This document shows positions 2,838 to 36,994 of a DNA stretch of 64,000 nucleotides, piece by piece. Where the stretch lies: positions 18,339 to 82,338 of the forward strand of contig JAKUPT010000003.1 of assembly GCA_022450595.1 (NCBI GenBank). Reading direction: 5' to 3'. A program made the translations under genes and the position numbers. The stretch is from Bdellovibrionales bacterium (GTDB lineage: Bacteria; Bdellovibrionota; Bdellovibrionia; Bdellovibrionales; UBA1609). The notes beneath the pieces are model-generated. The model saw only the letters and a program-made list of their open reading frames with translations, ran no database searches and was not told the DNA's origin. Position 1 is the stretch's first letter, and the number at the start of each line of letters is the position of its first letter.

Positions 2838-3482
2838 TTACTTTAAATTATCGTAACGCTCATAAAGAGCTTCAGCAGTTTTGTGCTCTTTTTTCCATTT
2901 TTCAGCTTGCTCTTTATATGAAGAGGTCTTTTTGTCCCATTCTTGCTTTTCTTTTTGTATTTGAGTGATTTTTTGATCGATTGTTTTATAAAGCTCATCT
3001 AAGTTTTTCATTTGATTAGCCCATTCCTGCTTTTCTTTCTCAATCTCATTGAGCTTTTTATCATAAGCCGCAATGTTCATTTCACGCTTTTTCTTGTTAT
3101 TTTCTAGCTGAAATAAAACATCTTTGAGTTTTTTAATTTCAGCTAAATCACTATTAAGTTTTTCTTGCTCATTTTTTTTATACTCAACAATTTTTAGGCG
3201 CATTTTTTCAATGGCCTCTTTGTTCTTATCAACATTTTGACTACTTTTACCAAGGTCTTTTTTCTGTTGTTTTAAGTTATCTATAGCCTTAGATGTTTGC
3301 TCTTTGTTGTCTTTTGCTATATCCAGATTTTTTTTATATTCATTATAGTTATGTAAGCTGTTATCAACATTTGTTTTTAACTGCTCCATATCTACATCAA
3401 TTTTTACTTCTTTTGCATTTAACTGCAAACAAGCAAAAACAATCGTAAGTGTGTAAATTATTAATTTCATTTTATCCCCCAT
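2838..3482 (-). CDS. Secreted coiled-coil protein, last gene of the Glt-like operon
   Basis: Signal peptide, then a Lys/Glu/Gln-rich heptad-like sequence throughout. Its start overlaps the upstream stop by 1 nt. Confidence 0.75.
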   Translation of the reverse strand: MGDKMKLIIYTLTIVFACLQLNAKEVKIDVDMEQLKTNVDNSLHNYNEYKKNLDIAKDNKEQTSKAIDNLKQQKKDLGKSSQNVDKNKEAIEKMRLKIVEYKKNEQEKLNSDLAEIKKLKDVLFQLENNKKKREMNIAAYDKKLNEIEKEKQEWANQMKNLDELYKTIDQKITQIQKEKQEWDKKTSSYKEQAEKWKKEHKTAEALYERYDNLK

Positions 3483-6016
3483 TAGTTTGCTCTTGTATTC
3501 TTAATTTGAAGCGGCACACTTTTATCTGTTTGTGGACAGTTATTTTTAAGCTGAGATCTATAATTGCCTATCTCATCTTCCCAATACTCACCTGTCACAC
3601 TCCAGCTAAGTGTTTTTTTAGGTTTATACGACGAAGGTAAACGCTTTTCAGTTTTTGTCGTGTCTCCTCCTGCAAGACGAAACCTAATGTTCTCACCACT
3701 ATTTGCAAGCACTTCATAACGAAGTAACTCATTATTATCTATAAGCTTAGCTAGTGTTTGCTTAATATCATTTAAATTGTTTTTAAGCGCTCTACCTGCA
3801 GCCACTCTGAACTGTGATTTTTCTTTTTCAAGCCTAGCAATACCCGACTTCTTCATACTTCTAAATGACTTTCTACCAGCTTTATAAACAGCAATTTGAT
3901 AACCAAGAACATCCGATAAGTGGTTTTCAAAATTTCGTTTTGCAATGTAAGTATTTAGGTTCTTTGCTAGAGATTTATCTTTTTTAGCCTTTTCAATTCT
4001 ATATGCGTACTGTTTAGCTCTTTTATTGGCTTGTTTTTGTCTCCAAATTAAAGAATTAATATCTTTTGAAATTAAACGCTCGATAAAAGCATATTGTTCG
4101 GCCTCATCCACTTTTTGATTAATAGCTTCTTGATGATTTAAAAAATTCCTTTTACGTGCAATTTCTCGAATCACTTGATATGGCAGCCCGTCAACATTAT
4201 TGGAGCTTTTACCTCTTAAGTAATTACTTAATGTCTTATAATAGCTTGTAAAGCTTTTAGTCTTATCCACATAGGATTTAACATCCTTATACCAAGGCTC
4301 ATAAAGCTGTTCCATTAAGTTCAATGTTTGATAAGCATCTCCATATTGGCAAATATTTAAATACCCTATTGTTCTGACCACATAGGACTCTGGCTTATAA
4401 ACAGATTTAAAATAAGGAGAATGCAGTGAGTACATGTTACCTATGGCACCCGATGGATCATCCATTAATAATTGACTCCAAGCTTGCTCAGTCAAACCTT
4501 CAACCCAAAACGGACTACTTTTGGAAACTTTTAAATACTCAACAGTTGAGTCTTTGTATTTCCCCATTTGGAATAACATTCTTCCTAAGTTTATAGAAAT
4601 TAATGATTCAAGCTCTTTATCAAAAACTTTGTTATTGGCAATATACTTTCTTAAGGATCTAAGTGTACTTATCGAAGATTTAAGATCATTAGAGGCATAT
4701 TCAGCAACAGATAATATAAACTGTGCTCTTGGATAGTGCTTAGATGATTTAGACACCTTTTTTGCATAGGTTTTAGCATAGCTAAAGGCTCTATCGGTAG
4801 ACATCCCCTTAGCAATCACATAGTGAGCATTATCTAAAGCTTTTTGTGGAATTAGTTCTCTGTTTTTTAAGTTTAATAAGGCTTTTGCCACTCGCTCTTC
4901 GTACTCAGCCGGTAAGTGTGAAACCACAACTTCAATGGCTTTTGGCGTAATTACTGGATCTTCTTTTTGAATAACCTTTATTAATCGGCTCACTGACTCA
5001 GAGTAAAAGCCCATTTCATGAGCACAGATACCTAATAAGTAGTTGGCTTGTTGAGAGTATTCTTTCACTGTTGAAAGATCATCAAAAAGACCTGCTACAA
5101 CATGACAAGTTTCACCTTTGGCATATATCATTAAAGCCGTTAACATTTTTAAGTGGTTACGATCAAACTCAACATATTGTTTCTCTTCGACTTTTTTATC
5201 TTCATTGTAGTTTGGCAATGCTTTATCAATTGTAGCAAAACTAACAATTTGATCTAAACCTATCTGTTGTCGTTTAACGTCTATGTGATCTTTAATAAAA
5301 TTAATTTTTTTATTTGTCCAATAAGTGATTTTAGAGGAATCCATTTTTTTAGGCTCTGGAAGTTTCTTTGCCGTTTTGTAAATAGCCTCCATTGTTTTTA
5401 TTTCTGCTATTTGAAAACTATTTGGACTTAATTTAGGCTCTCTACCTATATCAAGCTTTGGAAGATTTTTAACCTTCACTTTAACTGTTTTAGTCTTACC
5501 ATCTTTAGCTTTTTGTTGTTTTTCTTCATATAAGTCAGCAACAGGTACACCGGCTGTATCTTTTTTAAGATTAGGGTCAGCTTTTACACCTTGGTCCAGC
5601 ACTTTAAGGGCTTTTGCTGATTTAGCTGAATCTAGTGCTTTTTTAATCGAAGTACCCATCTCTTTTTGGGTAGTTGTATTGTATTCCGGTAAGTCCTTAG
5701 CAATGCTTTGAATTTGTTTTCTTGTTTCTTGAGCCTCTTTAATTTGCTGTTCTTCTTCTTTGGTTCTATTCACTATTTCACTAACTTTAGTGTTAGGTCT
5801 AATAGGCTCACCAGTCATTTCACTGACTTTTTCTTGTGTGTACTGCTTAGCTTTATTCCAAAAATTCAAGACAGCAGACTTAGCTTCTTCGACTTTTTGT
5901 TGTAATTGCTCTTGATTCACAATAGAGTTTTCAACACTTTGTGAATCTGGCACTGCCATTTTTGCAGATACATTTAAACTCAAAATTAAAATTGCTAATA
6001 GAGTTATGTATTTCAT
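3482..6016 (-). CDS. Periplasmic/secreted 844-aa protein with a charged N-terminal region and a TPR-like helical-repeat body; Glt-cluster associated (possible GltC-type analogue)
   Basis: Signal peptide MKYITLLAILILSLNVSA and a long uninterrupted ORF in operon context. Functional assignment rests on context only. Confidence 0.8.
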   Translation of the reverse strand: MKYITLLAILILSLNVSAKMAVPDSQSVENSIVNQEQLQQKVEEAKSAVLNFWNKAKQYTQEKVSEMTGEPIRPNTKVSEIVNRTKEEEQQIKEAQETRKQIQSIAKDLPEYNTTTQKEMGTSIKKALDSAKSAKALKVLDQGVKADPNLKKDTAGVPVADLYEEKQQKAKDGKTKTVKVKVKNLPKLDIGREPKLSPNSFQIAEIKTMEAIYKTAKKLPEPKKMDSSKITYWTNKKINFIKDHIDVKRQQIGLDQIVSFATIDKALPNYNEDKKVEEKQYVEFDRNHLKMLTALMIYAKGETCHVVAGLFDDLSTVKEYSQQANYLLGICAHEMGFYSESVSRLIKVIQKEDPVITPKAIEVVVSHLPAEYEERVAKALLNLKNRELIPQKALDNAHYVIAKGMSTDRAFSYAKTYAKKVSKSSKHYPRAQFILSVAEYASNDLKSSISTLRSLRKYIANNKVFDKELESLISINLGRMLFQMGKYKDSTVEYLKVSKSSPFWVEGLTEQAWSQLLMDDPSGAIGNMYSLHSPYFKSVYKPESYVVRTIGYLNICQYGDAYQTLNLMEQLYEPWYKDVKSYVDKTKSFTSYYKTLSNYLRGKSSNNVDGLPYQVIREIARKRNFLNHQEAINQKVDEAEQYAFIERLISKDINSLIWRQKQANKRAKQYAYRIEKAKKDKSLAKNLNTYIAKRNFENHLSDVLGYQIAVYKAGRKSFRSMKKSGIARLEKEKSQFRVAAGRALKNNLNDIKQTLAKLIDNNELLRYEVLANSGENIRFRLAGGDTTKTEKRLPSSYKPKKTLSWSVTGEYWEDEIGNYRSQLKNNCPQTDKSVPLQIKNTRAN

Positions 6017-6040: not shown

Positions 6041-6862
6041 TTAGTCAAAAAACAGTGTTGCACCAACTAAAAATACTGTTGCTTGTGTTGTTTGATCTTT
6101 AATTTTTTCACCCGTACGGTAGTTAAGCAGCTCTTCACTATAAAATCTGTTTCTAATATCCGCTCGTAAAGCTAGGTATTTATTTAAAAACAAATACTGA
6201 GTGATATCTAAACCTAAAGTAATTGATGTCTTGGATTTAGTACTTCCCAACTCAGGACGTAATTGTTGGTCATATGAAACAACACCAATTGTTGGTGTAA
6301 TTGCCATATCAAAGTATAAAATTTTACGGTCTAAAAAGCTTACCTTTGCGTATATTGGAACAAAATTATAACCAATTCCAATATAACTCGTGGTTTTTCC
6401 ATGATCTGGCGTAATACCTGAGCCACTTGCTATGGTTTCTTTAAAGGCTGTAGTTGTTTGGTTGTCTTTCATATCAGAGTGAATATAAGTAAATTCCACA
6501 CCATGACGTTCTGAAAAGAAGTAGTTTGCAGTTAATGAAAGATCAATACCCTCACTAAAGTTATCATTAATTACAGGACCCGCTAATAATGAAATCCCAA
6601 TTTTTTTATCTTTAGTAAAAGTTCTATTTTGAACGACTGTAAAATCAGTGTCTTTAGGAGCCCAATACTTTTGCTCAAGTCCACTAATATCCAACTTTTC
6701 AGAGTCTTTCTTTTTTGTATCCTCTTTTTTGTTAGATGGAGCTGCTGGTTTTGCAACCTTTTTTTCTTGTCTTTGGTATTTAGATGATTGAGCCCAAGAC
6801 TCAAAACTAAACATTAATAATACCGTTAATAATAGTGGCTTCATGATTTCTCCCCTCATCAC
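6041..6862 (-). CDS. Outer-membrane beta-barrel protein (GltH-like position)
   Basis: Signal peptide (probable start at MKPLLL, about 6844), alternating amphipathic beta-strand pattern, and a C-terminal VGATLFFD. There is a 4-nt overlap with the upstream gene. Confidence 0.8.
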   Translation of the reverse strand: MMRGEIMKPLLLTVLLMFSFESWAQSSKYQRQEKKVAKPAAPSNKKEDTKKKDSEKLDISGLEQKYWAPKDTDFTVVQNRTFTKDKKIGISLLAGPVINDNFSEGIDLSLTANYFFSERHGVEFTYIHSDMKDNQTTTAFKETIASGSGITPDHGKTTSYIGIGYNFVPIYAKVSFLDRKILYFDMAITPTIGVVSYDQQLRPELGSTKSKTSITLGLDITQYLFLNKYLALRADIRNRFYSEELLNYRTGEKIKDQTTQATVFLVGATLFFD

Positions 6863-8358
6863 TGTAAACTCCTAAACATAAAAGGATATTTGACAACCAC
6901 TGACGTACCACCTTCTGGTGTAGGAAATCTCCAACCAGAAATTCTTCTTAAAATACAACCCTCCACCAAACTATTTTTTAGTGTTGTGGAAGAGATTTGT
7001 TGTGCACCGACTTTACCATTTCCAGAGATTGTGAAATTAACAATCACTTTACCGTACAAATCAGGCTGTGCACTTAACTGCCTTTCATAACAATATCTGA
7101 TTTGTCCTAAATAACCTTGAATGGTCTGAGCAATGACTTCCCTGGCTAAGCCACCTCTAACTTCAGTTTCTTCTTCAACTATACCGACATTAGCTGTACC
7201 AACTCCTCCAGCACTTAAAGAGCCTGAGCCTCTTAGACTCCCAGAAGCTCCAGTGCCTTTACCAACAGTTGCTACACCACCTATTTTAAACTGTTCACCT
7301 TTTTTGGCTTTAACATCACCCACAGATGCTTTTCCAACACTTGCAAGAGCACGACCCGAGGCTTTAGAACCAGCTTTATTTCCTAGTGCTTCGATGTTTA
7401 CCGAGTTTTTATTATTTCTTTTAGCAATTTTACCAATTAACTTACTAAGTCCTGCTTTTTTCAAGCTCTTAGAAACATTCACCATAGCTTTACTTTTTGG
7501 AATATTTTTAGAAACAGTAGTTTTACCACTGGCTTGAGAAGGCTTTGGTGTTGGTGAAGACTTCGCAATTTGTTTAATAATTTTATTAGCCTTAGCCTTT
7601 TGTTTTTTTGTAGATTGAGCATCATAGATTATTTTAGTGTATTTATTCATTTTTATTTCTGATTGCTCAAGTTTATTTTCTTCTACACCAGGCTTAAATA
7701 TTAATAATGCAAAAAGTAATGCCACCGCACCAAAGGATGACAATAGTGGAACTTTAAAGTTTGGGTCCCACAATGTTTGGACTTTTTCAGGTAATGAATC
7801 TTCTGTATTTTTACTTTTTATAATTCTTTGTTGTATAACAAACTCACCATAATCAGAATATACCCAGTTGTCGTTTTCTGGAGGATTTAAATAAATTTTG
7901 TCTTTACCAAAGTAAAATTGATACTTCTCTTTTGCTTTTAAAAGTTTTGTGTGGGTTACATATCCTTGCTTGCGAACAATGACTTGATGATACTTTTGGC
8001 CTTCATTAGTTAGAGGCTTAGTTTCATCGGTAAAAATCTCACTATGCGTGTCATGTGGATACATTTTTAGCGTATGTTGACCAATATGAATAGCTGATGG
8101 ACTTGAAACAGTATATTCAACAATATTGGATTTTTTAACCCATGTTCCAGTTTCACTTCCAAGATCAGACACAACCCAGCTATTCTCTCTACATTCAATG
8201 CTACAGTGTAAAGTATTTATTTCTTCACCAAGAAGACGAATAGATGCATTCCGAGCGGACCCAACTGTTATCAGCTCCTGCTCATGGGGTTTAAACTTAT
8301 GTCTTCCGACAAAGCGACCTCTATATAAATGTTCTACTTCTAGTTCTATCTTACGCAT
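6859..8358 (-). CDS. FHA-domain / single TM / low-complexity linker / TonB-C-like protein (GltG/PglI-like)
   Basis: N-terminal FHA-like segment (ITVGSARNASIRLLGEEINTLHCSIE...WVVSDLGSETGTWV), a TM helix (LLSSFGAVALLFALLIF), an Ala/Lys/Gly/Ser-rich linker, and a C-terminal TonB_C-like segment (GKVIVNFTISGNGKV...GGTSVVVKYPFMF). Confidence 0.85.
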   Translation of the reverse strand: MRKIELEVEHLYRGRFVGRHKFKPHEQELITVGSARNASIRLLGEEINTLHCSIECRENSWVVSDLGSETGTWVKKSNIVEYTVSSPSAIHIGQHTLKMYPHDTHSEIFTDETKPLTNEGQKYHQVIVRKQGYVTHTKLLKAKEKYQFYFGKDKIYLNPPENDNWVYSDYGEFVIQQRIIKSKNTEDSLPEKVQTLWDPNFKVPLLSSFGAVALLFALLIFKPGVEENKLEQSEIKMNKYTKIIYDAQSTKKQKAKANKIIKQIAKSSPTPKPSQASGKTTVSKNIPKSKAMVNVSKSLKKAGLSKLIGKIAKRNNKNSVNIEALGNKAGSKASGRALASVGKASVGDVKAKKGEQFKIGGVATVGKGTGASGSLRGSGSLSAGGVGTANVGIVEEETEVRGGLAREVIAQTIQGYLGQIRYCYERQLSAQPDLYGKVIVNFTISGNGKVGAQQISSTTLKNSLVEGCILRRISGWRFPTPEGGTSVVVKYPFMFRSLQ

Positions 8359-8361
8359 GTT

Positions 8362-8601
8362 CTACCTCAGGAAATCAACTGAACTTTTAATTTCATCATC
8401 AAATTTTTTACGCACTTTATATAAAGGCATAAACTTCATTCCTTTTTTTTGCATCAAGTATGCTCCGTCAGGATTTCTAGCAACACCATCAATACTAGAC
8501 TCATCAAAGCTAACTTCTTGCTTCTTACGATACTTAACCTTTTTAGCTTCAACTGATTGAACTCCAAATAAAATCGATAAAATTATTAATCGGACTATCA
8601 T
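8362..8601 (-). CDS. Small secreted protein (GltF-like position)
   Basis: 79 aa with a signal peptide. Both neighbours are translationally coupled (a 4-nt overlap upstream). Confidence 0.65.
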   Translation of the reverse strand: MIVRLIILSILFGVQSVEAKKVKYRKKQEVSFDESSIDGVARNPDGAYLMQKKGMKFMPLYKVRKKFDDEIKSSVDFLR

Positions 8602-9518
8602 TGCTGTCCTCCTTTATTATCAGTTGAGCTTACATCTCTTTTTGCAGCTTCAAGCTGAGCTATTTTTTTATCAAATTGATCAATTTTCATTTTGAAATGT
8701 TCTTTTTTATGGCTGTATTTAGTATTTGATTGAGACATTTTGTATAAGTCTTTATACATATTCAGAGCCTCTTTAACTGTATCTTCTGTAGCCTCTAAGG
8801 ACTCAGCATACATTAACATTAGATCAAAATTATTTTTTTTGACTGACAGTGATTTTTTAAGAAACGGCTGTGCCTGTTTCATTTTATTTAATCGGTATAA
8901 GGACTCTGCCATACCTAATACGACATTTTTATTTGAAATGCCTTTTTTATTTAAGTAGTCGTAGTGACTTAGAGCTTTGCTGTACTCAGATTCTGATAAG
9001 TAAATGTTTGCTAAAAAGAAGTGTGCACTTTTAATACGATTGTCTAACTCTAAAGATTTTTGTGTTAGACTAATAGCTTCAACCTTATTTCCTTGAGACC
9101 AGTGAATTCTAGCTTTTTGATAATAAAGCATGCCAAAATTAGGTGTCTTTTTTAAAGCGAGATCAATCAACCAATGAGCTTTATCAAAGTTACTTCTTTG
9201 CTCTTCATAAAGACTTAAATAGTATGGTCCCCACGGCGATAATGGAGCCATGATGGACAGCTTATCTGCTACCAAGTTTAATGTACTCCACGACCTGTCT
9301 TTGACACAGTCATTGGCCATTTCAAGCATTGTATTCCAATCTTTATCTTTTAAATCAGTTTTATTCTTAGGACAACTTGCAGAGAATAAACCTCCAGATT
9401 CCTCAATGGATTCTGCGTTAATATTTTTAACGTAGAACTCGGATTTTTCATTGGTCTTTGTACTTGTACTTACACAACCAACGAGGGGTAGTAATAGTAG
9501 TATAATTAAATATTTCAT
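8598..9518 (-). CDS. TPR-repeat lipoprotein (GltE/AglT-like position)
   Basis: Lipobox LPLVGC followed by TPR-like repeats (e.g. AHWLIDLALKKTPNFGMLYYQKARIHWSQGNKVEAISL). 4-nt overlaps on both sides. Confidence 0.8.
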   Translation of the reverse strand: MKYLIILLLLPLVGCVSTSTKTNEKSEFYVKNINAESIEESGGLFSASCPKNKTDLKDKDWNTMLEMANDCVKDRSWSTLNLVADKLSIMAPLSPWGPYYLSLYEEQRSNFDKAHWLIDLALKKTPNFGMLYYQKARIHWSQGNKVEAISLTQKSLELDNRIKSAHFFLANIYLSESEYSKALSHYDYLNKKGISNKNVVLGMAESLYRLNKMKQAQPFLKKSLSVKKNNFDLMLMYAESLEATEDTVKEALNMYKDLYKMSQSNTKYSHKKEHFKMKIDQFDKKIAQLEAAKRDVSSTDNKGGQQ

Positions 9519-12500
9519 TTGCTACCTCCTGTTGGAACTACAATTTGCGGTGATGTCACGGAAGCTAAGTGACGCACAGAAGATTTCATATTGAACTTGT
9601 CAATTTTTGATTGAATCGTAGAAAGTGTGCCATCATAAAAATTAAGCTTTTTGGCCACTTCCTTGGCTTCCGTTAAGCTTTCAATAATTTTATCTTCCAT
9701 CGGAAAGATTAAATTATTCATTTCAGAACGAAAACTTAGTGCATCCGCCTCGTTTAAACCATTTGGCAGAGGCATTTCTTTGATTTGTTTTACAAATACA
9801 GAATATAAGTCAGCAAGGGCCATCATTGATTTAACAGTCATTTCAGGGTCTTGATATCGAATGGTTGACTGATAAGCACTTTGTGCCTTTTCTAACTTCT
9901 CAGTTTTTATAGCTATAACCATGGCCACACGATCTATTTGTGACTTTAGACTTTGCTTTTCAAATTCATCAAACAATATTTGAGCTTGTATATAACGAGC
10001 CTTTGCTTTTGTTTCACTACTTGCATTTTTATACTTTAAAATATCCATTGCTGTACTAAAAGCTTTAGGATAGTTTTTATCATTAAATTGACTCTCTAAG
10101 GTTTTTAAATGAAGCTCACCCACAATTGGTTGAACTCCTTTTTGAAAAGCAAATTTGCGGTAATTTTTATTTAGATCCTCACCTTTGATTTTTGCTATAT
10201 GATAAACTCTCTCTAAAACCTTTTTTTGAAGCTTAATATCGTTTGTACTAAATAGCTCGTCCAATATATCTTGGGCTTTAGTGAAAGATCTATCTAATAT
10301 AAGAAAATCTGAAGCCAGTAATTTCCAATCATCTTTTTTAGATTTATCAGCATTTGTTTTATTATGAGCCAATTGTAATAATACTTCAGCTGCTTTATGT
10401 GTACGGCCTATATCTTCATAGGTTTTTGCGGCTTGTAATAAGGCTTCCTGCACATTGTCTTCTTTTGGAAACATCTTAGCATATATAAGACTGTCTTCTG
10501 CCCCTTCGCCAATTCTATCTAAGTCATAATAAATTTGAACACTATTCCACCATGCTTTGGGAGCAAGAGGCGAGTCAGTGTTTTCTTTAGCAAACTTTTG
10601 ATATCCAGCAATAGCTTTGTCGAATTCTTTTTTCTCTTCTAAGTTTTGAACTTGAAGAAAATAGGACTGTTCGTACAGAGATTTAAGCTTAGCTATTCTT
10701 TTTTTATTATTGGTTTTTGCCATCAATTTCTGTGTGTACTTTTTGATATCTTCAAACTTTTTGTCTTTATTTAGAATATCAAGATACAAGTCCTGAGCTT
10801 TTATACCCTTGTCTTTTGAATTAAAATTATCACCTAATGTGTAAAATATCTTTTGAGCATAATCATAGTTGGCTTTTTCAAAAGCAATTAAGCCCTCTTT
10901 ATATTTTAAATCTAAATGATGTTTACCCTTGGGATGAAACTCTAAGTACTTTGCTACAAGTTTTCTAAAAAGTGTTTCATCGGTCTCAGACCATTTTTTA
11001 TCACCTGACTTTTCAACGTCTTTTTCTAAACCAACGGCCGCTGCATAATGTGCATCATGTGACATTTTTTTGAATTTTTTAGGCACAAATTGAATATTTT
11101 TATCTTTAACTTTTTTACTATCAAGAGTTTCATTCATAACAATCTGGTATTGCTCACTGGCTTTTCTATATTTTTTTCTATTAAATAAAAGCTCTGCATA
11201 GACATAACGGGATTTAAAGTAATTATCAGTATTTAATGGACGGGATAAATAAACTCTAAAAGCGGCTTCTGAGCTATCAGCAAACACCGGGTATGTGGGG
11301 TTTTTCTTCCACATTCTTAACCACTTTGAAGCAAGTTTTAATGAGGTTTCAGAAATAAGCTCTGTACAACTGGCTAGTGTCTCTTTATCTGCTTGATGAG
11401 CTTTGCTCCAAGAACTATCGGGTTTACATGTGGAATCAAACTCCTGTAGAGCTTGAACGGACTTTTTTCTATCTCTTGAAGCTTCGTAGTTATAAACCAG
11501 CGAATTTCTTACCTCAGGTATAGATTTTGATTTTCCTAAATTATTAATAAAATCTTTTAAAACAGTTTCTTCATCTTTATATTTGCTGTGAGAATTATAA
11601 ATTCGACCAATCTTTATAAGATATGGTTCAACTGACAAATTCCCGGCCTGTTTCTTAAAATAACTATAGGCTTGTTTAGCTTCAAATATATCACTAAAAA
11701 ATAAGGCCATATCGGACAAAGCTTCTTTTCTTAAATCAAGCCTTGCATCTATTCCTTGTTCTTCAATCATTACACCATAGTCAACGACACTTTCCATCTC
11801 TTTCATGGCACTCATAGTGTCTCGTAAATTGTAATATGACCAACCTGCTTTATATAAAGCATATGGATAAGCCCTAGAATTAGGATATTTTTTAATAGAA
11901 TTAAATCTAGCCAAAGCTTTTTTAAATTTTTTGTTTTTAAAATCTATCTCACCAATTGCTAAATAGGCATCAGGAACTAGTAATGAGTTTTTATGACCAT
12001 TAATAAGCTTCCAGTATAGACCAACTGCCTTTTTATCATAACCTACTTGCTGGCAAGCCATGGCTTCATTAAATAAAACCATGTCCATTGATGCAAAGTT
12101 AGGAAATCGAGCCTGTATTTTATCATAAATACTTATGGCTTTTTTAACATAGGCCTTTGAAGATCGGTTTGTAACTTTTTTTGGCATTAAAGACACCATA
12201 TCTTCAGACTGACGATTAATTTCAAAAAACAATGCAGACTTAGCACGCCTCATATAAAGCTCTGCTAATCGAAGCAATAAATCAGCCTCCATATAAGAAC
12301 CACGATATTTTTTAATCAGTTTTTCTAACTGAGAAATCGCTTTTTTCTCAGTTTTACCAATTAAAATTTCAGCCTTTAGGGCGTTTACGTCATTTTGTTC
12401 TGGATTTTTGGAATTTAGCTTAAGTTTGTTTAAAACATCATCATTGGCAAAAGACACAACTGGGCTAACAGACACTATTATGACTGTAATTATTAATAAA

Positions 12501-12559
12501 TTTTTGATTAGCCCATTTCTTATCATCATACTGTCCTTACTCCATTGATATTGTCGCAA
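9515..12559 (-). CDS. Large periplasmic TPR-repeat protein (GltD/AgmU-like position)
   Basis: About 1000 aa with an N-terminal signal/anchor and TPR-like repeats throughout. The likely true start is at MMIRNG (about 12529), because the ORF start overlaps the upstream gene by 23 nt. Confidence 0.8.
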   Translation of the reverse strand: MRQYQWSKDSMMIRNGLIKNLLIITVIIVSVSPVVSFANDDVLNKLKLNSKNPEQNDVNALKAEILIGKTEKKAISQLEKLIKKYRGSYMEADLLLRLAELYMRRAKSALFFEINRQSEDMVSLMPKKVTNRSSKAYVKKAISIYDKIQARFPNFASMDMVLFNEAMACQQVGYDKKAVGLYWKLINGHKNSLLVPDAYLAIGEIDFKNKKFKKALARFNSIKKYPNSRAYPYALYKAGWSYYNLRDTMSAMKEMESVVDYGVMIEEQGIDARLDLRKEALSDMALFFSDIFEAKQAYSYFKKQAGNLSVEPYLIKIGRIYNSHSKYKDEETVLKDFINNLGKSKSIPEVRNSLVYNYEASRDRKKSVQALQEFDSTCKPDSSWSKAHQADKETLASCTELISETSLKLASKWLRMWKKNPTYPVFADSSEAAFRVYLSRPLNTDNYFKSRYVYAELLFNRKKYRKASEQYQIVMNETLDSKKVKDKNIQFVPKKFKKMSHDAHYAAAVGLEKDVEKSGDKKWSETDETLFRKLVAKYLEFHPKGKHHLDLKYKEGLIAFEKANYDYAQKIFYTLGDNFNSKDKGIKAQDLYLDILNKDKKFEDIKKYTQKLMAKTNNKKRIAKLKSLYEQSYFLQVQNLEEKKEFDKAIAGYQKFAKENTDSPLAPKAWWNSVQIYYDLDRIGEGAEDSLIYAKMFPKEDNVQEALLQAAKTYEDIGRTHKAAEVLLQLAHNKTNADKSKKDDWKLLASDFLILDRSFTKAQDILDELFSTNDIKLQKKVLERVYHIAKIKGEDLNKNYRKFAFQKGVQPIVGELHLKTLESQFNDKNYPKAFSTAMDILKYKNASSETKAKARYIQAQILFDEFEKQSLKSQIDRVAMVIAIKTEKLEKAQSAYQSTIRYQDPEMTVKSMMALADLYSVFVKQIKEMPLPNGLNEADALSFRSEMNNLIFPMEDKIIESLTEAKEVAKKLNFYDGTLSTIQSKIDKFNMKSSVRHLASVTSPQIVVPTGGSK

Positions 12560-13049
12560 ACTTCATCGCTGAATAACCAGCCATAGAAGATGTGTACATT
12601 ACCTTTTTTAAAACTCCGTAGTCTAAGCGTGAGTCAGCTTGCATGACCACTTCGCCTTTAAATTTAAACTCTGTATTTATTTCTTCAATTTTTTTACTTT
12701 TCTCTGCGTGCTTATCTAATTCTTTAAATAATTCAGTGATAAATTCACTGTCGTTGGCATCCAATGAGGAGGCTTTGATATTTCCCTCTTCTAAACTAAC
12801 AACTTTTTTATCATCAATATAGATACCATCTAATGAAACAATGAGCTTTAAGCCTTCAACCGGATCTTTAACAGATGTCGACTGCGGAAGTTTTAAATCT
12901 TCATTGGGTGTAATATTCACTGCACTTGTGGAATAGCTTTTTAATAAAAACACAATAATAATAGTGAACATGTCCACCATGGCTGTAAGTTGCAAAATAA
13001 ATGCAGCCTTCTTATTGTCTCTTTTCATTTTTTCAACAGCTCTTCTCAT
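12537..13049 (-). CDS. ExbD/TolR-family motor subunit (AglQ/AglS-like), TM aspartate present
   Basis: The N-terminal TM segment LQLTAMVDMFTIIIVFLL aligns by eye with the TolR/ExbD motif P-x-x-D-V-x-L-V-L-L. Confidence 0.85.
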   Translation of the reverse strand: MRRAVEKMKRDNKKAAFILQLTAMVDMFTIIIVFLLKSYSTSAVNITPNEDLKLPQSTSVKDPVEGLKLIVSLDGIYIDDKKVVSLEEGNIKASSLDANDSEFITELFKELDKHAEKSKKIEEINTEFKFKGEVVMQADSRLDYGVLKKVMYTSSMAGYSAMKFATISME

Positions 13050-13052
13050 TTT

Positions 13053-13616
13053 TTATCCTTCAATTACATTTCCAAAAACAACATCTGGAAACATGACATC
13101 AATTGCTACTTTTTTATTTTCTTCGTTTTCTAAATAAACTTTTGGATCATCTGATTTTAAGCTTCTAGCTTCATCAATAACCTTTATGATTTCATCGTAT
13201 TTAATGTCTGGAGCAGGTGTTAAATCTAATCTAAATATTTTAGGAAACTGTTGCTTCACCTGTACCAACTGTTGATGTAATGAATCTAGATCCCACTGCT
13301 CTTGTTTTTTGGGGATTGTTACATTTTTAGCAGACTTCCCATCAATAGTGACCTTTAGCTGAAAGCCTGTATCTTTCATCATCACCACTTTAATTAAAAT
13401 GTCGCGATCTTTTTTCTTACGATCTTCCTCAATGGCTTTTTCAACCACTTGAGGAATGTCTGTTTCTACAATTGTTACTTTTAAAAACACGGTGGCAAGT
13501 AACATGATTGGAATCAGACACACCATAAGTGAAAGCATTGGAGAAAGGTCTAGTTCGAAAGACGCCTCTCCGTCTGCTTGCATATGATCTTGAATTTGTC
13601 GTTTACGACGACTCAT
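13053..13616 (-). CDS. ExbD/TolR-family motor subunit paralog, TM aspartate replaced by Ser
   Basis: The TM segment ELDLSPMLSLMVCLIPIMLL has Ser at the position aligned with the TolR/ExbD Asp. The periplasmic domain resembles ExbD. Confidence 0.8.
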   Translation of the reverse strand: MSRRKRQIQDHMQADGEASFELDLSPMLSLMVCLIPIMLLATVFLKVTIVETDIPQVVEKAIEEDRKKKDRDILIKVVMMKDTGFQLKVTIDGKSAKNVTIPKKQEQWDLDSLHQQLVQVKQQFPKIFRLDLTPAPDIKYDEIIKVIDEARSLKSDDPKVYLENEENKKVAIDVMFPDVVFGNVIEG

Positions 13617-13627
13617 ACTCTCTACTC

Positions 13628-14356
13628 CTATGCCATCTTTTTAGATGGTGCAGGTGGTTCATCTTCTTTAGGCTCTTCCATTTTGTCTAAGCCTAGATCT
13701 TGTGGAAACGCATTGTTTGATGAAAAGGCCTGGTAATGTCTTGTTGTTAACAGGTCTACAACCTTTGAAGAGTGTTCAGAGATTTCTTCCATCAAATAGT
13801 TTTGTCTAGAATGTAAAAAGGCATAACTAATCATTACTGGAATGGCCACTGACAGTCCAAGTGCTGTTGTGTTCATCGCAAGTGATATACCTTGTGATAA
13901 CATCGTGTTCTTTTGTGCAGGATCTGCAACAGCAACCGCTTCAAAGGCTGCAATCAGACCAAGGATAGTACCAAGAAGACCTATAAGGGTTGCAACGTTT
14001 GCAATCATCGCAAGATAGCCTAAACGTTTACCGAGGTTTGGAATTACTTCTGATAAAGAAATGTCCAGTCCTGTGTAAATCCCTTCATCATCTCTGTCGG
14101 CTCGCTCCAAAACACCTTTTACGACGTGAGCAAGTGGTGCCTTCTTGTTAGCTGAACAAAAAGTGATCGCCTCTTCGACCTGATCTTTCATAACCAAACC
14201 TTTAAGTTGATTAGTAAAGTCATCAGCTTTAATGGCGTAATCAAAATACAGGGCTTTTGCTCTTTCTAAAATTAGAGCAAGTCCTATCACTCCCATTGTC
14301 ATAATGGCAAAGCCTGCAAATCCGCTATCTATTATCATCTGAATTAAGTTACTCAC
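13628..14356 (-). CDS. MotA/TolQ/ExbB-family proton channel (AglR-like)
   Basis: 242 aa with three predicted TM helices. The conserved C-terminal TolQ-like block is LGLLGTILGLIAAFEAV...GISLAMNTTALGLSVAIP. Confidence 0.9.
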   Translation of the reverse strand: MSNLIQMIIDSGFAGFAIMTMGVIGLALILERAKALYFDYAIKADDFTNQLKGLVMKDQVEEAITFCSANKKAPLAHVVKGVLERADRDDEGIYTGLDISLSEVIPNLGKRLGYLAMIANVATLIGLLGTILGLIAAFEAVAVADPAQKNTMLSQGISLAMNTTALGLSVAIPVMISYAFLHSRQNYLMEEISEHSSKVVDLLTTRHYQAFSSNNAFPQDLGLDKMEEPKEDEPPAPSKKMA

Positions 14357-14394: not shown

Positions 14395-15270
14395 TTATGC
14401 GGCGTCCTCGCCAGTTTCTGCATATTCTTTCAGTCGCCCTTGAGCATCTTCACTAATATTTGTGAACTTCACTCCATAGAGAACTGAAGAGTTTTTTTCT
14501 TTCACATTTTCATCATATTTTTTACTGACCACTTCACATACGGCATTAAATGGAGGAACTCCATCGCCAGGCTTAAAGTGCAAATACAGTTTTTGCCCAG
14601 GAACAATCATGGCATTATCCATAATAATCCCAGCACCACCTTGAGATATTTCAACGCTTTTACCCTTCCATACAGATTGATTATCATGCACTAAAATGGT
14701 GGCTCCATATCTCACACGTCTATGTCTTCTTCTAAAAAAGATCTCTTGAATTTCTGGCATGAGGGTTTCTTGAAGCTTTTTGATGTTTTCAAATTGAAAG
14801 GCTGTCATATCAGCGATACGCACCCAGGCCTTCATTCCCTTTTTCCACACATAATCAAACTCAAATATAAGTTTTTGCTGAAGCATTTTAATCACATCAG
14901 TAAATGCAAACGGACCAAATTTGTTTTCACCCTTAAGGATGTACCATTCGGCCATTATGTTTTGTTGGTTTTCTTGAGTGCTAGTCACTTCACGGGCTTT
15001 TTTCTCAGCTTGCAGGAAAGCAACATTTTGCGCCGAGGTTTCATGAAGTTCATTGGACTCTTGTTGCTTAGGAGGCGCTTTAGGTTTTGCCTCTTTAATA
15101 TGTTGTAACAACTCTTGATGCTCAACAAAACCCACCCAGTCTTGTTTCGCCTCATCATACAAATAGTCCATAATGGTTAACGCGCCCTGATTGACCTTAG
15201 ACACAATCTCTTCAAAGCTGTAGGGGCCTAATTGTTCACCATTATGTGAGACATAAAATTTTTGACTCAT
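14395..15270 (-). CDS. Cytoplasmic GYF_2-GYF_2-PilZ protein (putative c-di-GMP receptor), first gene of the gliding operon
   Basis: Two GYF_2/DUF4339-like repeats (FYVSHNGEQLGPYSFEEIV...DWVGF and WYILKGENKFGPFAFTDVI...AWVRI). The C-terminal PilZ motifs are RRRHRRVR and EISQGGAG. The stop lies 38 nt upstream of the MotA-like gene. Confidence 0.85.
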   Translation of the reverse strand: MSQKFYVSHNGEQLGPYSFEEIVSKVNQGALTIMDYLYDEAKQDWVGFVEHQELLQHIKEAKPKAPPKQQESNELHETSAQNVAFLQAEKKAREVTSTQENQQNIMAEWYILKGENKFGPFAFTDVIKMLQQKLIFEFDYVWKKGMKAWVRIADMTAFQFENIKKLQETLMPEIQEIFFRRRHRRVRYGATILVHDNQSVWKGKSVEISQGGAGIIMDNAMIVPGQKLYLHFKPGDGVPPFNAVCEVVSKKYDENVKEKNSSVLYGVKFTNISEDAQGRLKEYAETGEDAA

Positions 15271-15490
15271 TTGCTTCCCCTTTAAGTTTTCAAAACCTTT
15301 TAATAACGGTTTACAAAGGCATCTTCGGCTTTTTTTATGAACGACTTTAAATATTGAGAAATATTAAGCTATTTAGACATTTGTCGGGGGGATTTTAGTC
15401 TTTTTTGTATAACTCTTTTACATGGACTTTTTAAAGTTAAATTTTTTGACCAACTTATGAACAAGTTCTTTGTGCTTGTGTCCTGGCCTT

Positions 15491-15618
15491 GAATCTAGCT
15501 CAAAGATTTAAATATATATGTCTTTCTGGACACGGCCTCCATGCCTCGCAGCTCGCGGTCCGTCCTGGACCGCTGAGATCCAGAAAGACATATATATTTA
15601 AATCTTTGAACTAGATTC
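15491..15618. repeat. Long hairpin, copy 1: 40-bp AT-rich arms (39/40 complementary) around a 48-nt loop carrying the 47-nt GC-rich core (15531-15577, forward orientation)
   Basis: Left arm GAATCTAGCTCAAAGATTTAAATATATATGTCTTTCTGGA (15491-15530). The right arm (15579-15618) is its reverse complement with one mismatch. Core: CACGGCCTCCATGCCTCGCAGCTCGCGGTCCGTCCTGGACCGCTGAG. Confidence 0.95.
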
Positions 15619-15840
15619 ACTTGCTAACCAGATGGGTGTGATTTGTGAATGGATAGGAAAACTAAACATTAGAAACAATTAATTATTAGAAAATTAAGCT
15701 CTCACTTTTTAAAGTAAATGGGTTTTATATATTTTTTTTATCGATACCAATTTTTTAATTTCAATTTGCGATTGTTTGTACAAATAGACTTTTACAATCT
15801 GAAAATAATTTTCCCAGGACACCATCATCGCATTTTTAAG

Positions 15841-15976
15841 TTTTCTTTTTATTTCAGCTTTTTACAAAACAGTCTTATGAAAGACCTCAGCGGTCCAGGA
15901 CGGACCGCGAGCTGCGAGGCATGGAGGCCGTGTCTTGAATAAGACTGTTTTGTAAAAAGCTGAAATAAAAAGAAAA
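15841..15976. repeat. Long hairpin, copy 2: perfect 38-bp AT-rich arms around a 60-nt loop carrying the same core in reverse orientation (15886-15932)
   Basis: Left arm TTTTCTTTTTATTTCAGCTTTTTACAAAACAGTCTTAT (15841-15878). The right arm (15939-15976) is its exact reverse complement. The reverse complement of the core is 47/47 identical to copy 1. Confidence 0.95.
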
Positions 15977-15994
15977 CCTACCACGAACCCACAA

Positions 15995-16025
15995 ATAAAA
16001 AAGGCCCCAGTAAAAACTGAGGCCT
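15995..16025 (-). terminator. Rho-independent terminator of the phn-like operon
   Basis: Minus strand reads AGGCCTCAG-TTTTTA-CTGGGGCCT followed by TTTTTAT, 27 nt downstream of the permease stop. Confidence 0.7.
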
Positions 16026-16051
16026 AATAATAAACTGAATTTTAGAAAGTA

Positions 16052-17089
16052 TTATTTAATCGCTTCACGGATGTAAGCAGAGGTCGTGTCCATCACCCAT
16101 ACCACAAAGGCAATGACGAAAACGAGGCAGCCCACTTCTTCCCACATGGCTTGACCTTGGTATTGCATGATCATGGTACCAATACCACCACCGCCGACAA
16201 GACCAATGATGGTCGCCATACGCACGTTGATATCCCATCTATAAATGGTAAAGGCCGTGTATGGTAAAATGATTTGAGGAACCACAGCAAACCAAACAAC
16301 TTGAAGGCTTGAAGCTCCCGTGGCCACAATGGCTTCAATAGGGCCTTCTTCAACACACTCAACAAGCTCAGAGTAGTTCTTAGCAAGTGATGCTACAGAA
16401 TGAAGTAGCAATGCCAGCATACCAGCAAATGGACCAATACCTACCCAAACGGAGAACACAATAGCCCAAATTAGTGGTTCAATAGAGCGAGTCACGTTTA
16501 AGATAGTTCTAAGGGTGGCGTAGATACCAAAACTTACAGGATTGCTTCCCATAATGTTTTTGGCGCATAGAAAACTTAAAACAAAAGCAACCGGTACGGC
16601 AAACACTGTGGCCATAAAAGCTATAAAGATGGTTTCAATTACAGCCAAGATAGCTTTTGGTAAAATGGTCCAATTCGGATCAAATAAGGCTCCAAAAACT
16701 TTCATGGCACCAACAAGGCCATCCTGATCGGTCAATTCATAGATACTGATATGAGCTACATTTAGTCCTGTAATAAAAGCCACAATAAAGGCAACAATAA
16801 GTTCAATGCCCCAAAAGCTCATAGTCCAATGTTTGTCAGGTTGAGCTGTGAGTGCTTGAGGTGGGTCAAAAAGAATATTTCCTAAAGTTTTAATTTTAGC
16901 TTTTTGTAAAATAAAAACTAAAACACCACCAAGTGCCCATAGGCCGAAAAATATCATTACATTATTACCCATCTTAAGCATGGTCTCTTCAGTGGGTTGA
17001 ATAGATACAACCAAAGCCACCAATGCAAGAAAAGTAAAAATAAAGCCATCAAGTAATATACATCTGATTAAAGTCTTTGCCTGTTTCAT
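16052..17089 (-). CDS. phnE: Phosphonate/phosphite-type ABC transporter permease (PhnE-like)
   Basis: Multi-TM protein of 345 aa with a BPD-transporter-like core. It overlaps the upstream PhnC-like gene by 1 nt. Confidence 0.8.
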   Translation of the reverse strand: MKQAKTLIRCILLDGFIFTFLALVALVVSIQPTEETMLKMGNNVMIFFGLWALGGVLVFILQKAKIKTLGNILFDPPQALTAQPDKHWTMSFWGIELIVAFIVAFITGLNVAHISIYELTDQDGLVGAMKVFGALFDPNWTILPKAILAVIETIFIAFMATVFAVPVAFVLSFLCAKNIMGSNPVSFGIYATLRTILNVTRSIEPLIWAIVFSVWVGIGPFAGMLALLLHSVASLAKNYSELVECVEEGPIEAIVATGASSLQVVWFAVVPQIILPYTAFTIYRWDINVRMATIIGLVGGGGIGTMIMQYQGQAMWEEVGCLVFVIAFVVWVMDTTSAYIREAIK

Positions 17090-17859
17090 TAGTTTACATG
17101 TACCTCTTTTGCGGATTCACCATAAATTTCTTCAAACCAACTTTGATCAATATTTTTAGGGTCGCCTTCATAAACAAGCTTTCCCTCTTTTAAAGCAATC
17201 ACACGATCTGCGTACTGCCTGACCAAACTTAAAAAATGAAGGTTACAAATAATTGTAAGCCCAAGCTCACGATTTACTTTTTTGAGATAGTCCATAACGG
17301 TGTGGCAGGTAGCTGGGTCAAGACTCGCCACAGGTTCATCAGCTAATAAAATTTGAGGTCCTTGAGTCAGTGCTCTTGCAATAGACACCCTTTGCTGTTG
17401 GCCGCCTGATAATTGATCTGCTCTAACATGGGCTTTTTCTTTAATGCCTACGAGGTCTAAATAATTAAGAGCCTTATCTTTGTCCTCTTGGCTAAAAAAG
17501 CCAAATAAACTAGATAAAATTGGAGTTCTGTAAAGAGCTCCCGTTAAAGCGTTTTTTAAAACTGAGTATCTTGGAATTAGATTGAAATGTTGAAAGATCA
17601 TTCCAATCTCACTTCTTAGCGTTCTGGAGTCCTTTTTATTTAATCGAGTGATATTTCGATCTTTAAAAAGAATTTGGCCACCAGTAGGCTCATGAAGGTT
17701 ATTAATACATCTAAGCAGTGTGGACTTTCCAGAACCAGACAACCCAATAATGACTAAAAACTCACCCTCTTTAACATCAAAACTAACCCCTTTAAGGGCC
17801 TTAACTCCATTTTCGTAGGTTTTTTCTAGGTCCTTAACCTGAAGAATCGTCTTACTCAT
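17089..17859 (-). CDS. phnC: Phosphonate-type ABC transporter ATP-binding protein (PhnC-like)
   Basis: Walker A GLSGSGKST, signature LSGGQQQR, Walker B ILLADEP. Size and N-terminal block are typical of PhnC. Confidence 0.85.
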   Translation of the reverse strand: MSKTILQVKDLEKTYENGVKALKGVSFDVKEGEFLVIIGLSGSGKSTLLRCINNLHEPTGGQILFKDRNITRLNKKDSRTLRSEIGMIFQHFNLIPRYSVLKNALTGALYRTPILSSLFGFFSQEDKDKALNYLDLVGIKEKAHVRADQLSGGQQQRVSIARALTQGPQILLADEPVASLDPATCHTVMDYLKKVNRELGLTIICNLHFLSLVRQYADRVIALKEGKLVYEGDPKNIDQSWFEEIYGESAKEVHVN

Positions 17860-17873
17860 ATTTATCCTATTGA

Positions 17874-18866: not shown

Positions 18867-18934
18867 CAGCTATGACGCGGGTTTTTAAACACTACTGCAT
18901 TGCCTCATTTCTGCCTTGTTGATACCTTTTATAT

Positions 18935-19660
18935 ATGTCAGTGTTAAACACCATTTTATCTCATGCTGAAAAATATAAAGAAAAAGGCCAATTGGTGGCC
19001 ATTTTTGATCTGGACTCTACGGTATTTAATGTCAGCCCCAGAACTCAAAAAATATTACAAGATTTTGCACAAAGTAAAAGCTATAAGTCTAAGTTCCCGA
19101 AAACACTACTTGAAAATCTCTCTCAAGTACAAGTTCGCACTCAAGATTGGGGCATTAAAGAGGCCCTGATTCGAAGTAAAATTGAAGCTCCGTTGGAGTT
19201 TTTTGAAAGCCTTCGAGATTATTGGTTTGAGCATTTTTTTAGCAATTCCTACTTGTTTCACGATGAGCCCTACCCTGGCGCAATTGAGTTTATTAAAACT
19301 CTGCACAAAAAAGGCGCGCGAATTGTCTACTTAACAGGCAGAGACAAGCATCGCATGGGCGAAGGTACTCATAATGTTTTAAAGCACTGGGGTCTTCCTT
19401 TAGACACCTATAATAAGCTTATTTTAAAGCCTAAAAAGGGAATGAGTGATTCTCTGTATAAGCTGGATATGATTGATCAGCTGTCGAAAGAACATCCCGA
19501 AACATGGGCCTTTGAAAACGAGCCTGTAAATATTAATCTTATTGCCAAAGAGCTCAAACAGGTCAATGTGGTCTTTTTTGAAAGCACCCACTCAAGACGT
19601 GAAGAGCTCATGCATGAAATGCCGATTCTTAAAGCCGAATTTCCGTTTTTAGCGGATTAA
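18935..19660 (+). CDS. HAD-superfamily hydrolase
   Basis: Motif I is FDLDSTVF (DxDxT), with a later YLTGR block. Confidence 0.7.
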   Translation: MSVLNTILSHAEKYKEKGQLVAIFDLDSTVFNVSPRTQKILQDFAQSKSYKSKFPKTLLENLSQVQVRTQDWGIKEALIRSKIEAPLEFFESLRDYWFEHFFSNSYLFHDEPYPGAIEFIKTLHKKGARIVYLTGRDKHRMGEGTHNVLKHWGLPLDTYNKLILKPKKGMSDSLYKLDMIDQLSKEHPETWAFENEPVNINLIAKELKQVNVVFFESTHSRREELMHEMPILKAEFPFLAD

Positions 19661-36962: not shown

Positions 36963-36994
36963 TGTTGTGCCAATGAGAAAATGCTGGAGCTGAC

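Follow-up and report, generated by a model that had tools for sequence, protein, structure and literature searches.

What does a protein built of two GYF domains and a PilZ domain do at the head of a gliding gene cluster? The question is raised by a 64,000-nucleotide (nt) stretch of DNA from a Bdellovibrionales bacterium (contig JAKUPT010000003.1, referred to below as the window), in which the reverse-strand gene for such a protein is followed by a set of genes related to those of the Agl/Glt gliding machinery. The analysis of its sequence, predicted structure and genomic neighborhood leads us to suggest that the gene encodes a soluble cytoplasmic adaptor, through which the Agl/Glt gliding machinery of Bdellovibrionota would respond to a cyclic dinucleotide; we put the probability of this general statement at roughly 0.5 and hold the mechanistic details with lower confidence. 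Cyclic dinucleotides govern the choice between swimming and gliding in Bdellovibrio, in which gliding is required for the exit from dead prey, and the GYF-GYF-PilZ protein is the best current candidate for a link from the second messenger to the gliding machinery in these predatory bacteria. Its family provides a concrete and testable candidate for the receptor of the gliding signal, and no accepted finding is overturned by this proposal.

The GYF-GYF-PilZ protein and its family

The open reading frame (ORF) comprises 291 codons, from an ATG preceded at a distance of 7 nt by the Shine-Dalgarno sequence GGGGA, with no earlier in-frame start codon upstream, to a stop codon at 14395–14397. Searches with the Pfam hidden Markov models (HMMs) identified both types of domain far above chance: GYF_2 (PF14237) with an E-value of 3.3e-17 (62.4 bits, cut-off 25.8) in two stretches, and PilZ (PF07238) with an E-value of 7.3e-16 (58.8 bits, cut-off 22.5) at residues 180–284. 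The AlphaFold2 model, built on an alignment of 23 family sequences, has a mean predicted local distance difference test score (pLDDT) of 75.5 and three confident modules, i.e. GYF1 (residues 1–60), GYF2 (108–160) and the PilZ barrel with its helix (186–290), joined by linkers of low confidence; the predicted template modelling score of 0.39 makes the arrangement of the domains relative to each other unreliable. The secondary structure of the model contains the beta-beta-alpha-beta-beta fold of GYF_2 at residues 5–60 and 108–160, and the six-stranded beta-barrel of PilZ together with the C-terminal helix (pLDDT 75–89 over residues 186–290). Foldseek searches against the PDB matched more than 20 PilZ structures with a probability of 1.00, led by PilZ domains with bound cyclic di-GMP (c-di-GMP), namely YcgR (5Y6G), MotI (5VX6), Alg44 and MapZ, a ranking by fold which does not discriminate between functions; for the GYF modules the matches were the GYF domains of GltJ (7Z3C) and GIGYF2. 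The two GYF_2 repeats and the PilZ domain, which the initial annotation had read directly from the letters, are confirmed by the Pfam HMMs as well as by AlphaFold2 and Foldseek.

The protein has no hydrophobic segment and is therefore predicted to be cytoplasmic. No family match to the N-terminal PilZN/YcgR domain of the YcgR type was found in it, the N-terminus being occupied by the two GYF_2 modules, nor any Pfam match to a zinc ribbon or to TonB_C. PilZ domains are receptors of c-di-GMP, and their N-terminal arms are disordered when the ligand is absent. In the window protein the first motif, R180-R181-x-x-x-R185, precedes the barrel, while the second, E207-I-S209-Q-G-G212, retains the canonical S and G and has E at the first position, as opposed to the canonical D or N. 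RRRHRR and EISQGG had both been pointed out in the initial annotation and are indeed present, at residues 180–185 and 207–212.

A family search returned 683 matches among 5.8 billion proteins; the best 120 of them all possess both Pfam domains, and those of the 120 that carry an organism name come from Bdellovibrionales. Motifs and gene order were counted in 80 species genomes (with loci labelled L018, L079 and the like), to which the window protein was added for the motifs, giving 81 sequences. The RRxxxR motif is intact in 76 of the 81 members, and ExSxxG, with E instead of D or N, is found in 80. That both motifs are kept across the family is our main reason to expect that a ligand is bound. 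The 23-sequence alignment reveals that the PilZ half is markedly conserved and that the second GYF domain, with the string EWxxLKGxNKFGPF, is the better conserved of the two. The architecture of two GYF domains and one PilZ domain is uniform throughout the family, including the genomes that lack an adjacent motor, and is judged to be old; a literature search for the combination of GYF with PilZ returned no relevant paper. In a small subclade (L037, L055, L065 and L070) the first two arginines of RRxxxR have been lost (sequences such as VFVERQHKRKK), and the second motif reads ExSKGG, with K; the members, which may be ligand-blind variants, are still encoded directly 5' of Glt genes, with no motor adjacent.

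The GYF domains point towards proline-rich partners. In Myxococcus xanthus a proline-rich segment of AglZ is the ligand of the GYF domain of GltJ, which aids the assembly of focal adhesions, and the GltJ GYF structure (7Z3C) was the sole sequence match of our family profile in the PDB (E-value 7.5e-4). This may only reflect a lack of other bacterial GYF_2 structures. The GltJ model NF033761 matches the window protein in the GYF region only, with 23 bits against a cut-off of 450, and the relationship is therefore one of generic GYF_2 similarity. The initial annotation had proposed that a GYF module was detached from GltJ and fused to a sensor; such a similarity and an architecture that is old and uniform do not bear this out, and the direction of any domain transfer cannot be inferred.

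The candidate ligand that we favor is the tail with which the AglR-like product of the next gene ends (…EPKEDEPPAPSKKMA; …MEEPKEDEPPAPSKKMA). Of eight proteins of the cluster that were examined, only this one has a PPxP motif, and from the TolQ/ExbB topology we take the C-terminal tail that carries it to be cytoplasmic. The last 14 residues contain PP in 23/23 AglR-like proteins encoded beside GYF-PilZ, whichever of the two gene orders they have and at identities as low as 47%. In a library of 1.8 billion proteins the same holds for 8 of the 13 closest AglR-like representatives versus 7 of 137 more distant ones, the background frequency of PP being 0.01 per 14-residue window. A second candidate ligand is predicted within the window protein itself, in the linker motif KPKAPPK, of which P63 is invariant in the 23 sequences and K62, P66 and P67 are at least 90% conserved. 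PxxPP occurs in the linker of 24 of the 36 Glt-linked members (the window included) versus 1 of 45 others, a contrast confounded by phylogeny. Several loci have the AglR tail and lack the linker motif, which weakens the idea that the linker must act as a pseudo-ligand in partnership with the tail. Two members, L069 (8001–9116) and L077 (7899–9179), have inserts of about 80–130 residues with a high content of P, S, V and Q in the inter-GYF linker, which is thus a hot spot of length variation.

Gliding genes at the GYF-PilZ locus

In the window, the stop codon of the GYF-GYF-PilZ gene and the GTG start of the AglR-like gene at 14356 are separated by a gap of 38 nt, in which no convincing terminator was found. 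Upstream, the operon of a phosphonate-type ATP-binding cassette (ABC) importer ends at a strong intrinsic terminator and a 780-nt intergenic region follows, so the GYF-GYF-PilZ gene heads the agl-glt transcription unit, which begins between the terminator (16002–16025) and 15270. Both the 38-nt spacing and the leading position in the cluster, claimed in the initial annotation, are thus supported by the coordinates and by this terminator. The genes of Agl/Glt type that follow are all co-directional and encode homologs of each expected kind, with one TolQ-like and two TolR-like proteins, TPR (tetratricopeptide repeat) proteins of the GltD/E kind, GltG, an outer-membrane barrel and GltC (Table 1). 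The AglR-like protein scores below the TolQ/ExbB equivalog cut-offs. The GltG-like protein reaches 165 bits with the NCBIfam GltG model (cut-off 650) and 110 bits with myxo_SS_tail, above the cut-off of 40; since GltG and GltC score below the NCBIfam equivalog cut-offs, they count as homologs, but not as equivalogs, of their myxobacterial counterparts. Neither another GYF module nor a protein resembling GltJ was found in the 64-kb window, in agreement with the earlier remark that the cluster lacks a GltJ.

Agl and/or Glt genes lie beside GYF-PilZ in 35 of the 80 loci. The order of the window, with GYF-PilZ followed by the motor and then by Glt genes, recurs in 14 loci, and in 3 more an extra gene stands between GYF-PilZ and the motor; in 5 loci GYF-PilZ follows the motor and precedes the Glt genes, in 9 it is followed by Glt genes with no motor adjacent, and in 4 by an extra gene and then Glt genes. 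The most constant Glt neighbor is the 1014-aa TPR protein, which is encoded 3' of GYF-PilZ in every Agl/Glt-linked locus. The extra gene of both mixed arrangements, found between GYF-PilZ and AglR in L018, L021 and L029, encodes a lipoprotein of about 325 aa with a metal ion-dependent adhesion site (MIDAS) in a von Willebrand factor A (VWA) domain. This gene, of a kind already published as a marker of gliding clusters, is the direct 3' neighbor of GYF-PilZ in 41 of the 80 loci, and the two ORFs often overlap by 4 nt. Its product contains the MIDAS sequence DxSxS; it is similar to the model of the MIDAS adhesins of Bdellovibrio (1e-19) and to CglD, a gliding lipoprotein, in the VWA part of the latter (1e-10). 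With the MIDAS gene included, 69 of the 78 evaluable loci have a gliding-related neighbor. An absence of linkage to agl/glt clusters in related genomes had been named at the outset as a finding that would weaken the case; the counts obtained are largely favorable to it. The remaining loci, mostly of Bdellovibrio proper, had at first given the impression of being unlinked to gliding, which the MIDAS lipoprotein gene downstream overturned.

The identity of these genes in B. bacteriovorus HD100 could be established from three sides. The window protein aligns over its full length (residues 1–284) with an HD100 protein at 37% identity (E-value 1e-80), and in HD100-type genomes the gene for two GYF_2 domains and PilZ lies between the ABC importer and the ABC exporters, adjoining the MIDAS lipoprotein gene; the HD100 pair of proteins is CAE80862.1 (Q6MIQ1) and CAE80861.1. 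The GYF-PilZ protein of L079 is 100% identical to CAE80862.1, the primers published for reverse-transcription PCR of bd3099 (Lowry et al.) match exactly within the MIDAS ORF of the same locus, and Bd3100 is listed by Lambert et al. (2010) as a pilZ gene down-regulated on leaving attack phase. The MIDAS gene is therefore bd3099 and the GYF-GYF-PilZ gene Bd3100, the HD100 ortholog of the window protein. The alternative assignment to Bd1482 was rejected, and a match of the bd1480 primers in metagenomes proved to be due to chance, falling in the alaS gene of an unrelated organism. As side observations, the MIDAS/VWA lipobox gene occupies 8818–9807 in L078 and 8819–9805 in L079, and the bd3099 family, the most constant partner of GYF-PilZ, is paralogous to the adhesins Bd0875 and Bd1483; its members may be CglB/CglD-like adhesins of gliding in Bdellovibrionota.

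The flanks of the locus are shared among the genomes. They comprise the ABC importer, the ABC exporters and a HAD-family hydrolase, of which 57 of the 80 loci have a homolog; in 15 loci the HAD hydrolase known from the window is itself the upstream neighbor. Throughout the family the divergent gene for this hydrolase is maintained on the upstream side (window 16052–19660), with or without the operon of the phosphonate-type ABC importer intervening before GYF-PilZ. A recurrence of the GYF-PilZ and agl/glt block in independent contexts was for this reason rejected in favor of one ancestral locus with insertions and deletions. In this locus the GYF-PilZ gene is the constant element, and the gliding cargo varies.

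Table 1. Positions of the GYF-GYF-PilZ gene, its domains and motifs, and the neighboring features in the window
Feature	Position	Strand	Description and evidence
GYF-GYF-PilZ gene	14395..15270	-	291 aa, cytoplasmic (predicted); ORF, Pfam; HD100 ortholog Bd3100 (CAE80862.1 / Q6MIQ1)
GYF_2 domain 1	15097..15261	-	approximately residues 4–58; Pfam; AlphaFold2 strands and helix, pLDDT 82–89; family profile match to 7Z3C, E 7.5e-4
Linker motif KPKAPPK, proline-rich	15067..15087	-	residues 62–68; conserved in Glt-linked members
GYF_2 domain 2	14791..14949	-	approximately residues 108–160; best Pfam stretch 109–156; invariant columns; AlphaFold2
PilZ domain, beta-barrel and C-terminal helix	14419..14733	-	residues 180–284; Pfam 58.8 bits; Foldseek PilZ matches
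PilZ motif 1, RRRHRR (RRxxxR)	14716..14733	-	residues 180–185, flexible linker; pLDDT <50 for residues 170–180
PilZ motif 2, EISQGG	14635..14652	-	residues 207–212; ExSxxG replacing canonical D/NxSxxG
AglR-like MotA/TolQ/ExbB stator channel protein	13628..14356	-	242 aa, three hydrophobic segments; Pfam MotA_ExbB 1.4e-25
AglR-like C-terminal proline tail (…PKEDEPPAPSKKMA), candidate GYF ligand	13631..13672	-	PPxP motif
ExbD/TolR-family protein, AglQ/AglS position	13053..13616	-	Pfam ExbD 1.8e-10
ExbD/TolR-family protein, AglQ/AglS position	12537..13049	-	Pfam ExbD 4.7e-12
Secreted TPR protein, GltD position	9515..12559	-	1014 aa; TPR matches
TPR lipoprotein, GltE position	8598..9518	-	306 aa; TPR matches
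GltG-like protein	6859..8358	-	FHA, transmembrane segment, AgmX/PglI (TonB_C-like) C-terminal domain; NCBIfam GltG 2e-48; Pfam FHA
Outer-membrane beta-barrel protein, GltA/B/H-like	6041..6862	-	TIGR04565 OMP_myx_plus 75.4 bits, exceeding cut-off 60
GltC-like protein	3482..6016	-	NCBIfam GltC 3.7e-33, 115 bits vs cut-off 450
Secreted coiled-coil protein, cluster end	2838..3482	-	214 aa; only SMC-like coiled-coil matches; hydrophobic N-terminus
Intrinsic terminator 3' of phosphonate-type ABC importer operon	16002..16025	-	10-bp stem, 6 GC pairs, T-run

The 780-nt region upstream of the GYF-GYF-PilZ gene contains no riboswitch or other known RNA at the Rfam threshold (TwoAYGGAY is sub-threshold, with 37.4 bits vs 43), and no sigma-70-like promoter was found in it. 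The same region (15271–16051) harbors two very stable long hairpins, at 15490–15619 and 15837–15980 (-81.5 and -82.3 kcal/mol, z about -15), each with AT-rich arms of 41–49 nt enclosing a GC-rich loop. Their 57-nt GC-rich cores (15524–15580 and 15883–15939), 302 nt apart, are mutually reverse complementary, so that they can also be read as inverted repeats around a 302-bp segment, similar to an inverton; no further copy of the core is present in the window or in 84 related loci. Elsewhere in the window, a stand-alone PilZ protein of 119 aa (36977–37333, forward strand; Pfam PilZ 41 bits) is encoded in a context unrelated to the gliding cluster. A gene for a di-haem cytochrome c peroxidase of the MbnH/MauG family (1737–2741, reverse strand) follows the last gene of the cluster co-directionally at a distance of 96 nt and converges on a gene for an MsbA-like ABC exporter (18–1514, forward strand), with no evident link to gliding.

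The putative signal and the competing explanations

How might the adaptor work? In the mechanism that we envisage, the PilZ domain would bind c-di-GMP or, less likely, 3',3'-cyclic GMP-AMP (3',3'-cGAMP), and the bound ligand would order the RRxxxR-containing linker between the second GYF domain and the barrel. One GYF domain, or both, would then bind to a cytoplasmic part of the machinery that is rich in proline, for which the conserved PPxP tail of AglR is the best candidate. The level of the nucleotide could thereby set, by activation or by braking, the engagement or assembly of the stator, by analogy with YcgR, MotI and FlgX, which act on stators of the MotA family, and with the contact between the GYF domain of GltJ and AglZ.

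The initial annotation took c-di-GMP as the nucleotide that controls gliding in Bdellovibrio, a view that is now outdated. Bd0367 (DgcA) is a Hypr GGDEF enzyme, whose S214D variant still makes c-di-GMP and cannot glide (Lowry 2022); hence the gliding signal of Bdellovibrio is 3',3'-cGAMP, for which the same work named no receptor. Two "gliding genes" are induced when cells have spent 4 h on a surface, and bd3099 is one of them; its expression is lower in the delta-bd0367 and S214D strains, and for full expression it requires the cGAMP-producing Bd0367. The HD100 member of our family is thus encoded directly 5' of one of the two genes used as a readout of the cGAMP-dependent gliding response. 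It is tempting to speculate that the PilZ domain, with its invariant ExSxxG type of motif, binds or discriminates 3',3'-cGAMP, and that the loaded GYF domains dock on the AglR tail and license motor assembly, which would make the protein the missing receptor of the Bd0367 signal. We regard this extended version as a long shot; if true, it would be the first PilZ sensor of cGAMP and the first interaction of a GYF domain with a stator. We know of no PilZ receptor for cGAMP.

Several observations weigh against the adaptor proposal. The nucleotide genetically tied to gliding in Bdellovibrio is cGAMP and not c-di-GMP, the second PilZ motif begins with E and not with D or N, and the fold similarity to c-di-GMP-bound PilZ structures, as said above, is blind to function. 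PlpA of M. xanthus, a PilZ protein that regulates gliding, has both motifs intact and binds no c-di-GMP, and mutations of its motifs are silent, so intact PilZ motifs are not sufficient for binding. The linker KPxAPP and the AglR tail do not strictly co-vary, as L019, L026 and L028 possess the tail and not the linker motif. In Bdellovibrio proper the motor genes lie elsewhere in the genome and not beside GYF-PilZ, and nine evaluable loci, including those of six Bdellovibrio sp. HCB genomes, have no gliding neighbor at all, GYF-PilZ being followed directly by the convergent ABC exporters. Moreover, because the shared HAD and ABC-transporter flanks mark a single ancestral locus, the loci do not count as independent events.

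These observations invite other explanations, of which three deserve to be weighed. The protein could resemble PlpA in being a nucleotide-independent regulator of polarity or reversal, with the PilZ domain serving as an interaction surface and the GYF domains binding a proline-rich polarity protein (e.g. RomR, MglA-module partner); RomR has a proline-rich linker. The precedent is a close one, since PlpA regulates reversals in both gliding and type IV pili-dependent motility with intact motifs and no binding of c-di-GMP, and the persistence of the family at loci with no adjacent motor fits such a role, as do the four members (L037, L055, L065 and L070) that lack the two arginines yet are encoded beside Glt genes. 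We nevertheless consider it unlikely, because RRxxxR is retained in 76/81 and ExSxxG in 80/81 members among proteins with an identity of only 37%, which speaks for selection to bind a ligand, and no polarity genes are found in the locus. If the protein indeed binds no nucleotide, it would be a second "silent" PilZ of the PlpA kind in the control of gliding, which would also be informative.

Somewhat less probable still is a regulator dedicated to the MIDAS/VWA surface lipoprotein of the bd3099 family, which would control the production, export or deployment of this adhesin and for which the adjacency of aglRQS would be secondary. A cytoplasmic protein has no direct contact with an outer-membrane lipoprotein, no homolog of which is encoded anywhere in the 64-kb window, and the window together with 13 other loci of the same order, as well as the other two basic orders, have Agl/Glt genes with no MIDAS gene in the block. 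What speaks for such a regulator is that the MIDAS gene is the commonest immediate neighbor (41/80), commonly with a 4-nt overlap or at most 40 nt away, that it is the sole gliding-related neighbor in Bdellovibrio proper, and that the HD100 PilZ gene Bd1482 likewise adjoins a MIDAS gene, Bd1483. Finally, the adjacency could be devoid of function, the protein being a general PilZ effector, one of 15–18 in Bdellovibrio, in a conserved neighborhood that gains and loses gliding genes. The common descent of the loci, all of which trace back to a single ancestral one and share its HAD and ABC-transporter flanks, and a gliding content that varies and is at times absent around a constant GYF-PilZ would both be expected in this case. 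We find it improbable in view of the spacing to the stator gene (38 nt, no convincing terminator in between), the proline tail, of the kind bound by GYF domains, on the adjacent AglR proteins, the co-regulation of bd3099 with gliding, and the overlap of the GYF-PilZ and MIDAS ORFs, which suggests translational coupling. It is also difficult to reconcile with the five loci in which GYF-PilZ was kept inside the block after an internal rearrangement, between the motor and the Glt genes, and this arrangement in turn supports the adaptor.

Comparison with known systems

That PilZ proteins regulate motility machines was already known, as was the presence of a PilZ gene at the Bdellovibrio gliding operon (2012) and the annotation of Bd3100 as a pilZ gene. 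Four points appear to be new: the conservation of the tandem GYF and PilZ protein as a family throughout the phylum, the constancy of its locus around a gliding cargo that varies, its orthology with Bd3100, the gene just 5' of the cGAMP-responsive bd3099, and the AglR with a proline tail as a candidate ligand of GYF. Bd3100 itself shares with the window protein the GYF_2-GYF_2-PilZ architecture and the setting, flanked on the upstream side by a phosphonate-type ABC importer and on the other by ABC exporters; it differs in an inter-GYF linker that is about 25 residues shorter and lacks KPKAPPK, and in being followed by the MIDAS lipoprotein gene bd3099, whereas aglRQS-glt follows in the window. 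The notion of a PilZ gene heading a gliding operon as the receiver of a signal is not novel, as Hobley et al. (2012) proposed this role, with respect to the DgcA signal, for Bd1482, which heads the gliding operon of HD100. Compared by position, the order of genes in the window mirrors that of Bd1482–Bd1473, in which the PilZ gene precedes the aglR-aglQ-aglS-glt operon (Bd1481–1473, with Bd1481 as aglR and Bd1480 as aglQ), and Bd1482 adjoins the gene for the lipobox MIDAS protein Bd1483 (Q6MMY6), as members of the GYF-PilZ family often adjoin such a gene; Bd1482 is, however, not the ortholog of the window protein.

Among the proteins of M. xanthus, GltJ (AgmX) also contributes a domain of the GYF_2 type to the Agl/Glt machine, at its cytoplasmic face. 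GltJ is membrane-bound, however, and combines a zinc ribbon, a transmembrane segment and a TonB_C-like domain with a single GYF, and it has no PilZ. PlpA (MXAN_2528) is likewise a PilZ protein that regulates Agl/Glt-dependent gliding, with a reversal phenotype, and is set apart by its description as a stand-alone PilZ with no GYF domains, not encoded beside aglRQS and not binding c-di-GMP. PlpA reportedly acts directly on the gliding motor.

The flagellar PilZ proteins YcgR and MotI (DgrA) provide the best structural matches to the PilZ barrel (5Y6G, E-value 3e-5; 5VX6, E-value 5e-5), with a sequence identity of only 15–17%. Together with FlgX, which binds the cytoplasmic part of flagellar stator units, they act on, or are encoded beside, a proton channel of the MotA/TolQ/ExbB family, as the GYF-GYF-PilZ protein is. 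YcgR differs by its N-terminal PilZN domain, in the place of which the window protein has the GYF_2 modules, and all three differ by their target, a flagellar stator as opposed to the presumed gliding stator AglR. The tandem GYF domains and the proline tail of AglR suggest a mode of docking that would parallel both the GltJ–AglZ contact of Myxococcus and the PilZ–stator brakes of flagella, and would thus join three fields.

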